Source: a virus
Taxonomy: Duplodnaviria; Heunggongvirae; Uroviricota; Caudoviricetes
IMG/VR virus record: IMGVR_UViG_2923307698_000006
Direction: 5' to 3' (one strand)
Length of the DNA stretch: 48,288 nucleotides
Shown: positions 42,001-45,000 of the stretch, one piece after another
Layout of the letters: each line of letters begins with the position of its first letter
How positions within the stretch are numbered: position 1 is the first letter of the stretch
Made by a program: the position numbers

Positions 42001-45000
42001 TTAGTTAACTCCTACTACCTCTTCCACAAACCATCACCTATTAGGTTGCGCCCAAATTATTAGGCATAGCCTATTGACAAGTAATTAGGCATTTCCTATA
42101 GTTTTCCCATACCAACCCATCCCGTCCCACACAATACAGGGCAATACCTCGAGTTACCAGGCAGTGGTCACGGGTTAAGTAGCCAGCCCGAGGCGTAAGA
42201 ACATGACGGCAGGGTTCAACTTTAATAACTATGCAGCAGGTTTTTGTTCCGCTACCCCGGCGTTAAGGGGAAATGAGGTCAGCATGGATACTATCGATCT
42301 TGGCAACAGCGAATCTCTGGTATGTGGCGTGTTCCCCAACCAGTACGGTACGTTCACCGCAATGACGTATACCAAAAGCAAAACGTTTAAAACCGAATCT
42401 GGAGCGCGTCGCTGGCTGGAAAGAAATTCAGGTGGGTGATATGGATTTCGACACAATCATGGAAAAGGCTTACGAAGAATACTTCGAAGGCCTTGCCGAA
42501 GGCGAAGAAGCTCACAGCTTCAACGAATTTAAACAGGTGCTTTCCAGTTCGGCAAAATCTAATGGCTGATAAGCGAAACAGCACCGCGAGGAATCAGTAT
42601 GCAGAAACGAGAACCCGTCATCATCGCGCCAGACTATACCAATGATGAACTTTATGAGTGGATGCACCAGAAAATTAATGCAGCGCAGGATCTGAAATGG
42701 GCTAATGAAGTCAGGGCTAAGCAGGCTGAAAATCTGTCCTCTCTGGAGCAGGATATCACCAATCTGGAAAAAGCAGCGGCATTAACCATTGCCAGAATGA
42801 TTACATACCCGCGTTAATAGCTAACCAACGAAGCTAAGGTTGGTAATTAAGGAGTTCTCCACGGGTGAGGTGGAGTGCTTGCGCCGGACACGGGTGAGCA
42901 TCCGGCACTGACAGTTTACTGAAAGGATATTTCCCTGAAAAGTCAGACCATAACGCGAAAGCGCACGGCGAGGTAGCTGGTTCATAGATAGCCTGTCGTT
43001 AAATTTTCGTCGACCGTGCGCTTCCGGTTGTGGCAATCCGCGAAATGGCGCGGCGGTAAGTATGGCGGGGTTATTCCTTCCCCCGTTGAGGACACCGGGT
43101 TGTCAGGTTGACCATACGCTTAAGTGACAACCCCGCTGCAACGCCCTCTGTTATCAATTTTCTGGTGACGTTTGGCGGTATCAGTTTTACTCCGTGACTG
43201 CTCTGCCGCCCTTTTTAAAGTGAATTTTGTGATGCGGTGAATGCGGCTAAGCGCACGCGGAACAGTTAAAACCAAAAACAGTGTTATGGGTGGATTCTCT
43301 GTATCCGGCGTTAATTGTTAACTGGTTAACGTCACCTGGAGGCACCAGGCACTGCATCACAAAATTCATTGTTGAGGACGCGATAATGGAAACGTTATTA
43401 CCAAACGTTAATACGTCTGAAGGTTGTTTTGAAATTGGTGTCACTATCAGTAACCCTGTATTTACTGAAGATGCCATTAACAAGAGAAAACACGAACGGG
43501 AGCTATTAAATAAAATATGCATTCTTTCAATGCTGGCCCGTTTACGTCCGATACAAAAAGGATGCTGGCAATGAATACAGCATTTGCACTTGTTCTGACA
43601 GTTTTTCTTGTTTCCGGAGAGCCAGTTGATATTGCAGTCAGTGTTCACAGGACAATGCAGGAGTGTGTAACTGCAGCAACCGAACAGAAAATTCCCGGTA
43701 ACTGTTACCCGGTCGATAAAGTTATTCACCAGGATAATAACGAAATCCCGGCAGGTCTTTAAAACAGTTCCGTAATAAACATCCGATTTCATTCTTATAT
43801 GCCAGCAATGGCAGGGATTTGTTCACCCTTAAATCTGTAATGAGGTAAAACAAAATGAGTAAAGTCTTTATTTGCGCCGCCATTCCGGACGAACAGGCAA
43901 TAAAGGAAGAAGGTGCAGTCGCTGTAGCCACAGCTATTGAAGCTGGCGACGAACGCCGTGCTCGAGCAAAATTTCACTGGCAATTCCTGGAACATTATCC
44001 GGCTGCTCAGGACTGCGCTTATAAATTTATTATCTGCGAGGATAAACCTGGCATACCCCGCCCTGCCCTCGATTCATGGGATGCTGAATATATGCAGGAA
44101 AACCGCTGGGATGAGGAGTCTGCTTCCTTTGTTCCGGTTGAGACTGAATCAGATCCGATGAACGTCACTTTTGACAAGCTGGCCCCTGAAGTACAGAACG
44201 CTGTCATGGTTAAGTTCGACACATGTGAAAACATCACCGTTGATATGGTTATTAGCGCACAGGAATTGTTGCAGGAAGACATGGCAACATTCGACGGACA
44301 TATCGTTGAAGCGTTGATGAAAATGCCAGAAGTTAACGCCATGTATCCGGAGCTTAAGCTGCATGCCATCGGGTGGGTTAAGCATAAATGTAAGCCTGGT
44401 GCCAAATGGCCCGAAATTCAGGCAGAGATGCGCATCTGGAAAAAACGTCGCGAAGGTGAACGCAAGGAAACCGGAAAATACACGTCTGTTGTTGATCTCG
44501 CCCGCGCCAGAACCAATCAACAGCACACTGAAAATTCAACAGGAAAAATCAGCCCGGTCATTGCTGCCATTCATCGCGAATACAAGCAGACATGGAAAAC
44601 ACTGGATGACGAACTGGCCTACGCTCTCTGGCCTGGTGATGTGGATGCCGGAAACATTGACGGCAGCATCCATCGCTGGGCAAAAAATGAAGTTATCGAC
44701 AACGACCGCGAAGACTGGAAGCGTATCTCGGCATCAATGCGCAAACAGCCTGATGCCCTTCGCTACGACCGCCAGACTATTTTTGGCCTTGTCCGTGAAC
44801 GTCCGATCGACATTCACAAAGACCCTGTGGCACTGAACAAATACATTACTGAATACCTGACTACAAAGGGCGTGTTTGAAGATGAAGGAACAAATCAGAG
44901 CGCAACTGATACTCTCTCGTCGCCAGTACCAGAAACTGATGCAGTGGAAACGGCAATTCCGGACAACGAAAAAACCGAATGCAAAGTGGAAGTCGAACCA

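Follow-up and report, generated by a model that had tools for sequence, protein, structure and literature searches.

The dicBF locus

The DNA of IMG/VR virus record IMGVR_UViG_2923307698_000006 (Caudoviricetes), whose full 48,288 nucleotides (nt) are referred to here as the window, carries an operon with dicF, the gene of a small RNA (sRNA), and dicB, the gene of a cell-division inhibitor, both known from the Qin prophage of Escherichia coli K-12. A sequence-only reading of the window had proposed this operon at 42281-43762. That identification is correct, and the dicBF feature itself is already known; its start needs a correction of a few bases, as ydfA begins at 42284, and its end, at the end of ydfD (43762), is kept. 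The locus is almost certainly an intact copy of the known dicBF early-left operon in a lambdoid prophage. Its parts are as follows (aa, amino acids).

42284-42439, plus strand: ydfA, Pfam DUF1391
42441-42569, plus strand: ydfB, by protein identity to K-12 YdfB
42599-42817, plus strand: ydfC, by protein identity to K-12 YdfC
43159-43211, plus strand: DicF sRNA, 53 nt, with a seed region, a terminator stem-loop (43174-43210) and a U-run to 43216
43386-43574, plus strand: dicB, cell-division inhibitor, 62 aa, Pfam PF05358 and NCBIfam NF049927 (CellDivInhibDicB)
43571-43762, plus strand: ydfD, 63 aa, DUF1482 (PF07358, 88 bits against a cut-off of 25)
43855-46326, plus strand: intact exonuclease gene, 823 aa, with a C-terminal Pfam Rv2179c-like 3'-5' exonuclease domain (227 bits)
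46379-46657: excisionase gene (xis), after the exonuclease gene
46626-47744: integrase gene (int), after the excisionase gene

DicF had been placed at 43159-43211 on its likeness to the K-12 RNA, with an Rfam covariance-model search and an alignment with K-12 dicF named as checks, and both recover it. The whole-window Rfam scan returned five matches above threshold, including a single one to DicF (RF00039). This match lies at 43160-43211 on the plus strand, covers model positions 1-52 of 52, and scores 76.7 bits against a gathering score of 48 (E 2.7e-15). All 53 nt of 43159-43211 are identical to K-12 dicF (b1574; 100%). The terminator claimed for DicF is also present, as a predicted stem of the helices GGCGGUA/UGCCGCC and CAGUU/GACUG followed by CUUUUU. 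The RNA is positioned within a polycistronic operon, between the end of ydfC at 42817 and the start of dicB at 43386.

The protein families bear out the claim that dicB and ydfD follow. DicB matches PF05358 with 127.4 bits (cut-off 27) and NF049927 with 132.7 bits (cut-off 100) over residues 1-62, and 55 of its 62 residues (88.7%) are identical to those of K-12 DicB, the differences clustering towards the C-terminus. The ATG of ydfD overlaps the dicB stop codon (ATGA), and YdfD, a lysis protein in K-12 (PMC8835842), shares 59 of 63 residues (93.7%) with its counterpart. YdfA, YdfB and YdfC are 90-93% identical to the K-12 proteins, and RefSeq uses the names ydfA, ydfB and ydfC in homologous loci. 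Protein identity to Qin across ydfABC-dicB-ydfD thus ranges from 88.7% (DicB) to 93.7% (YdfD). At the DNA level the genes are 91.0-97.3% identical to Qin, the two spacers on either side of dicF 97.4% and 98.9%, and dicF 100%. The exonuclease gene prolongs the operon, in agreement with the RefSeq annotation of a near-identical locus; K-12 Qin has at this position only the pseudogene ydfE, interrupted by IS2.

Published functions were taken from PMC5069750, PMC6832061, PMC8835842 and PMC10448788. DicF represses ftsZ, xylR, pykA and manX (PMC5069750), and DicB works via MinC and blocks ManYZ-dependent phage entry (PMC6832061). The division block and altered phage susceptibility that had been attributed to the K-12 operon are found in the literature (PMC5069750, PMC6832061). 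The block is also common: 4763 of 5426 complete E. coli genomes contain a match when partial matches are counted, with a median of two places per genome, and 2227 of the 5426 match at 80% query coverage or more. In the closest genome, E. coli 2015C-3163 (99.9% identical), the RefSeq annotation does not list dicF. The finding is in this respect the re-identification of a textbook prophage module, and the gain lies in annotation, as RefSeq omits dicF and calls a doubtful open reading frame (ORF) on the minus strand.

The immunity region

Upstream of the operon, the following features replace those expected from Qin.

40632-41057, minus strand: YdaT-like gene, divergent from racR
41041-41385, minus strand: YdaS-like gene, divergent from racR
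41489-41965, plus strand: RacR-type repressor gene, 158 aa, NCBIfam NF049929 RacR equivalog (246 bits against a cut-off of 200)
42059-42102 region, plus strand: predicted operon promoter, with -35 TTGACA at 42074-42079, a 17-nt spacing and -10 TATAGT at 42097-42102
42059-42074 and 42084-42099, plus strand: two exact copies of the operator repeat ATTAGGCAT(AG/TT)CCTAT, bracketing the operon promoter

The RacR-type gene occupies the place of dicA in Qin. Its product has no Pfam match, and 144 of its 158 residues (91%) are identical to K-12 RacR. The promoter scores 11 of 12 in a scan for TTGACA-17-TATAGT. Three further copies of the 16-mer ATTAGGCAT(NN)CCTAT, with 0-3 mismatches, are found in the racR/ydaS intergenic region (41394-41461), an arrangement similar to OL/OR in lambdoid phages. 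K-12 Rac, too, has this promoter and the two repeats, downstream of racR. Over the region from the repressor to ydfA, identity is 45% to Qin (dicA-ydfA) and 80% to Rac (racR-ydaG). Neither a DicA gene nor DicA operators, the marks of Qin-type regulation, were found upstream of ydfA. Regulation is probably of the Rac type rather than the DicA type, because a RacR-type repressor and Rac-type operators are present at the operon promoter. To judge by these sequences, a Rac-type immunity region and early-left promoter probably drive a Qin-type dicBF operon.

The identity of the body from ydfA to ydfD, 91-100% at the DNA level, would by itself agree with a cryptic remnant like Qin, under the same control by DicA/DicC and the antirepressor Rem as the K-12 operon. 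Such a remnant is very improbable, given a repressor that belongs to the RacR equivalogs and is paired with YdaS- and YdaT-like genes, and given the low likeness to Qin of the region that includes the promoter and operators. The gene content argues in the same direction. Apart from the intact exonuclease gene, the window has replication, Q, lysis, terminase, capsid, tail, xis and int genes, and the prophage, which adjoins potC in the matching genome, looks complete. The Qin picture of the sequence-only reading holds for the identity of the operon; DicA repression is probably not transferable to a locus with a RacR-type repressor. Since the operon is apparently driven from a Rac-type immunity region, in an apparently complete prophage, the triggers of DicF and DicB are likely to differ from the DicA/Rem circuit of K-12.

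The promoter scan showed no plus-strand consensus site for a second promoter in the gap between ydfC and dicB. Primer extension in K-12 likewise gave no promoter inside this gap (bioRxiv 10.1101/2023.04.14.536235).

The spacer between ydfC and dicB

From the ydfC stop to the dicB start the gap measures 568 nt (42818-43385), slightly more than the 565 base pairs (bp) first given. The presence of DicF had been offered as the explanation of the gap. DicF is indeed there, but it takes up 53 of the 568 nt, under a tenth, and the remaining 515 nt consist of conserved structured RNA. Similarly, the gap had been described as free of ORFs; mechanical ORFs of 31-71 aa exist on both strands, and none of them is gene-like.

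One of these frames deserves attention, as RefSeq calls a 54-aa hypothetical protein (WP_001358071.1) in E. coli 2015C-3163 at the equivalent of 42821-42985 on the minus strand, and a 71-aa frame starting with TTG is open in the window. If a minus-strand small protein were encoded here, the RNA would be secondary in this part of the gap. The substitution pattern makes this most unlikely. Across 30 distinct homologues almost all nucleotide changes are amino-acid replacements, and stops or frameshifts interrupt the frame in six of them. The frame was rejected as a small protein and is treated as non-coding because of these replacement-rich changes and interruptions, and WP_001358071.1 is probably a spurious call. 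The curated K-12 annotation has no gene at this position. The plus strand also folds far better than shuffled sequence, with z = -4.7 for 42818-43400 and z = -6.2 for 43212-43400.

In K-12, three DicF species have been described. The 190-nt species has an RNase III-dependent 5' end (bioRxiv 10.1101/2023.04.14.536235; PMC10448788), the 53-nt species an RNase E 5' end and a terminator 3' end (PMC5069750), and the 72-nt species a 3' end made by RNase III (PMC5069750). The structured elements found around DicF can be set against these ends.

42856-42906, plus strand: a pair of neighboring hairpins, each with the decamer CACGGGUGAG in its loop (42860-42869 and 42889-42898), seen in the sequence and in the minimum-free-energy fold
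42948-43033, plus strand: long imperfect duplex of 42948-42968 with 43014-43033, helices of 7 and 10 bp, pair probability 0.98-1.0
43027-43150, plus strand: module 2, a conserved structured RNA domain corresponding to the 5' body of the 190-nt DicF precursor, from a 15-copy alignment
43219-43370, plus strand: dicB leader RNA, with a 21-bp outer helix (43219-43239/43350-43370) around a multi-stem pseudoknotted core (43232-43357)

Measured back from the terminator (43211-43216), a 190-nt RNA would start at about 43022-43027, in the 3' arm of the 42948-43033 duplex. This duplex is therefore a candidate for the RNase III cut that gives the 190-nt species its 5' end. The AU-rich single-stranded junction at 43150-43160 fits the RNase E 5' end reported in K-12 (PMC5069750). 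For the 72-nt species the 3' end is expected near 43230, in the 5' arm of the leader outer helix, whose 21 contiguous pairs have a pair probability of 0.99; this helix is a candidate RNase III site for that 3' end. The local anatomy fits the known DicF processing map because the 190-nt and 72-nt ends fall in the two predicted duplexes, and the fit is an argument of consistency with K-12 processing. In the upstream part of the spacer, 42847-42919, which overlaps the twin hairpins, shares 90% identity with part of Escherichia phage vB_EcoP_phi367.

Module 2 has no Rfam family at E up to 5. It is kept at 89.5% identity in Stx2c phages without the DicF seed and at 77% in the "dicF-like region" of P1, where the copy lies directly downstream of the C1-controlled Pban promoter. 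A terminator hairpin comes after it in both P1 and the Stx2c phages. Between copies the downstream segment of seed plus terminator varies and module 2 is constant. The consensus of 15 diverse aligned copies comprises 22 pairs and a variable hairpin; compensatory changes occur in 4 of the pairs, so that covariation lends its structure modest support within a limited sequence diversity.

The Rfam search of 41900-43900 at E up to 5 gave, beyond chance matches, only DicF and a sub-threshold match to STnc100. UPD-PKib, tsr32 and SNORD103, which also appeared in this interval, scored far below their thresholds and were taken as chance.

The pseudoknotted dicB leader

The sub-threshold STnc100 match (RF02076; 34.7 bits against a gathering score of 47, E 2e-5) covers the leader region, 43209-43418. 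By the Rfam threshold the dicB leader falls outside STnc100, though the fold is common to both. The pseudoknotted fold of the dicB leader recurs in the core (30240-30347) of the full-score STnc100 RNA in the late region. An invariant string, UCACCNGGAGGCACCNGGCAC, is common to both window copies, with two occurrences in the window against zero expected, and a scan of viral contigs with it collected more than 120 stretches. In an alignment of 39 sequences of the leader family, GUGAAU, CUNNGCG and the 3' hairpin are invariant, the outer helix and the fourth hairpin vary in sequence with their pairing kept, and an inserted hairpin is variable.

A covariance model of our own, R1, was built from the leader-family alignment. 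Within the window it recognizes two sequences and no others, with 92.1 and 76.9 bits, the second being the dicB leader. It also recovers two copies from elements outside its training set.

L128, 3341-3462, plus strand: R1 leader copy upstream of tciA in P1, 64.5 bits
L220, 1764-1890, minus strand: R1 leader copy upstream of kilR in K-12 Rac, 65.1 bits

As the variable hairpins were poorly aligned by MAFFT, the helices were re-scored after covariance-model alignment. Among 97 distinct R1 matches, 86.2% of cells are paired; shuffling lowers this to 72.6%, and sliding the partner to 29-49%. The covariation score reaches 0.395, compared with 0.159 for shuffled sequences. Both values come from an alignment that leans towards the model structure. 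Both sides have changed in 17 of 25 pairs, and within helices 1 and 3 in 15 of 16 pairs. A pseudoknot, CAGUUAA/UUAACUG, joins the segment after helix 2 with the loop of helix 4. It occurs as 26 distinct complementary sequence pairs across the family, with a mean complementarity of 6.1 nt to the own partner and 4.1 nt to the partners of other sequences. The shared core and covarying helices of the STnc100 class are thus found in the dicB leader, which by these models is a divergent relative of the STnc100/PasD class.

The dicB leader represents the type B form of the family. In 65 of 68 distinct type B copies an ORF preceded by a Shine-Dalgarno sequence follows, mostly 33-45 nt past the core (79 nt in one case). 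These ORFs encode DicB (46 copies), Kil (9), TciA (1) and others. Directly upstream, a terminator U-run abuts the outer helix in 63 of the 68. At least two unrelated sequence versions of the outer helix, of 21-22 bp, occur, which suggests that the long duplex itself is under selection. In Rac-type phages and K-12 Rac, the terminator upstream of the leader belongs to a sub-threshold relative of DicF (39-41 bits). The related STnc100-type form stands in tandem in some viral contigs, with up to 3-4 copies within 1-4 kb (L014 and L092 are examples). Just 3' of the leader in the window, the dicB start codon lies inside the stem of a small predicted hairpin (43382-43399, plus strand; GAUAAUG/CGUUAUU, pair probability 0.93), which could limit translation initiation.

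Roles of module 2 and the leader

As modeled here, module 2 and the leader are best supported as processing scaffolds that set DicF apart from the mRNA of dicB; they may also influence terminator read-through or the translation of dicB. In a stronger form of the latter, module 2 (43027-43150) and the leader (43232-43357) would be cis-acting regulators, either of read-through at the DicF terminator or of the stability and translation of the dicB mRNA. This is a serious though not the favored explanation. In its favor, the conservation of each element does not depend on DicF. In P1 and Stx2c phages, module 2 and the terminator hairpin after it stand close behind early promoters under repressor control; dicB, kil, tciA and other small ORFs follow the leader at a near-fixed distance. 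The leader's helices and pseudoknot covary around junction nucleotides that do not vary, and compared with Qin the two spacers are at least as conserved as the coding genes. Against such regulators, no similarity exists to HK022 put, the one known cis-acting antiterminator RNA of phages, and reports describe the related STnc100 and PasD as sRNAs that end in a terminator and act in trans, a point against autonomous antitermination. Processing signals alone could, moreover, account for the conservation.

Processing scaffolds remain the preferred role for both elements, and a wider reading of the gap includes them. The gap may, on a tentative view, be a conserved three-part RNA cassette placed before small host-targeting genes, with a structured 5' domain, a swappable sRNA made of seed plus terminator, and a pseudoknotted leader, whose flanking domains set the ratio of sRNA to toxic protein. 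Perhaps the middle sRNA is DicF here, KilS in Rac and a product with another seed elsewhere. It is conceivable that lambdoid and P1-like phages put this cassette before dicB, kil and tciA. Dosing might then operate, if at all, through terminator read-through, RNase III cleavage or translation control. No published link among the elements of the cassette was found, and Faubladier & Bouche 1994 may cover part of it; neither dicF nor dicB is named in this context in a 2026 preprint on Pas sRNAs or in the KilS paper. With spacer RNAs kept across unrelated phages and before different toxic genes, the dosing of an sRNA and a protein from one transcript becomes testable.

Proposed mechanism

The identity and position of the parts, the predicted duplexes, the operator repeats and the conserved spacer fold are established here. 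They allow a course of events to be proposed in which processing sites, targets and phenotypes are borrowed from K-12 work and control of the operon by RacR is deduced from sequence. The sigma-70 promoter at 42074-42102 would be kept off by the prophage repressor, of the RacR type here rather than DicA. Derepression would give one transcript with ydfA-ydfB-ydfC, the 568-nt structured spacer, dicB, ydfD, the exonuclease gene, xis and int. RNase III could cut the long duplex about 135 nt upstream of DicF, yielding the 190-nt form, and RNase E the AU-rich junction, yielding the mature 5' end. With its 3' end formed at the intrinsic terminator, the 53-nt DicF would result. In read-through transcripts, RNase III may cut the 21-bp helix, which starts 8 nt past the terminator stem, and so produce the 72-nt DicF. 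Together with Hfq, DicF would pair with the ftsZ, xylR, pykA and manX mRNAs. DicB would bring MinC to block Z-ring assembly and inhibit ManYZ-dependent entry of phage DNA, and YdfD may lyse the cell.

Several points weigh against a simple transfer of the K-12 operon to this locus. Expression, processing and phenotypes are here presumed by analogy with K-12. The seven differences in the 62 residues of DicB are mainly C-terminal, so that partner specificity could differ from K-12. Binding of RacR to the promoter repeats is suggested by a shared motif. In K-12, Northern blots gave no full-length ydfABC-dicFB-ydfDE transcripts (bioRxiv 10.1101/2023.04.14.536235), and for this reason the frequency of read-through at the DicF terminator is uncertain. 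No sequence feature that contradicts the identification as a dicBF operon was found.

Other RNAs in the window

The remaining Rfam matches above threshold lie outside the operon.

14259-14382, minus strand: STnc490 Hfq-binding RNA, 146 bits, within the tail-gene region
30121-30182, plus strand: AgvB, anti-GcvB sRNA, 96.5 bits, back to back with STnc100
30184-30376, minus strand: STnc100 sRNA, full score 142.5 bits, late region
36581-36755, minus strand: sok, antisense antitoxin RNA of hok/sok-type loci, 114 bits

The STnc100/AgvB pair is located upstream of a 616-aa ORF (28123-29973) in the late region, for which the near-identical RefSeq genome gives a SASA-family esterase upstream of a holin gene. 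The same genome has hokD annotated in the sok part of the prophage.

Comparison with known systems

The put RNAs of HK022 are cis-acting antiterminators downstream of PL and PR, and thus occupy a comparable position in the early operons of a lambdoid phage without an N gene. They are two-stem RNAs of about 70 nt (PMC9378689), in contrast to the multi-stem pseudoknot of the dicB leader. The HK022 genome has no R1 match at E up to 1, and neither spacer element was found in it by motif or BLAST. An identity of the spacer elements with put-like antiterminators was ruled out by the lack of any motif, BLAST or covariance-model match.

STnc100 (RF02076) and PasD are prophage sRNAs, probably of common ancestry (2026 Pas sRNA preprint). 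The dicB leader has the same core of GUGAAU, the CUNNGCG loop and UCACCNGGAGGCACCNGGCAC, and agrees with these sRNAs in its outer helix, hairpin arrangement and pseudoknot. It differs in its sub-threshold score (34.7 vs 47), a shifted second helix and the 21-bp outer helix. Furthermore, it is part of an mRNA, 29 nt upstream of a start codon, whereas STnc100 is a free-standing terminated sRNA; no terminator of its own was found in the leader region. The preprint mentions no link of STnc100 or PasD to dicB or kil.

The K-12 Qin operon ydfABC-dicF-dicB-ydfDE has the same gene order as the window, with DicF 100%, the spacers 97-99% and the proteins 89-94% identical. The two long duplexes in which the published RNase III ends fall are a further common feature. 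The differences concern the repressor, operators and promoter, which in the window are Rac-type and not DicA-type, the exonuclease gene, intact here and the pseudogene ydfE in Qin, and the xis, int and full late-gene set of the window prophage.

The early-left operon of Rac (racR, ydaG-ydaF-KilS-kilR-ydaE-racC-recE) has the same repressor family, operator repeat and promoter, and in both systems a DUF1391 gene stands at the start of the operon (ydaF in Rac, ydfA here). ydfB and ydfC are absent from the Rac annotation, and sieB is on the opposite strand in Rac. A terminated small RNA, a pseudoknotted leader and a small division inhibitor follow one another in both; the seed is that of KilS in Rac and of DicF here, and the inhibitor is KilR in Rac and DicB here. 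The K-12 Rac gene kilS (b4833; L220, 1906-2003, minus strand) overlaps a sub-threshold DicF match (39.1 bits vs 48), and the KilS paper does not mention DicF. KilS is placed with respect to the leader and the division-inhibitor gene just as DicF is, and therefore appears to be DicF's counterpart in Rac, differing in its seed.

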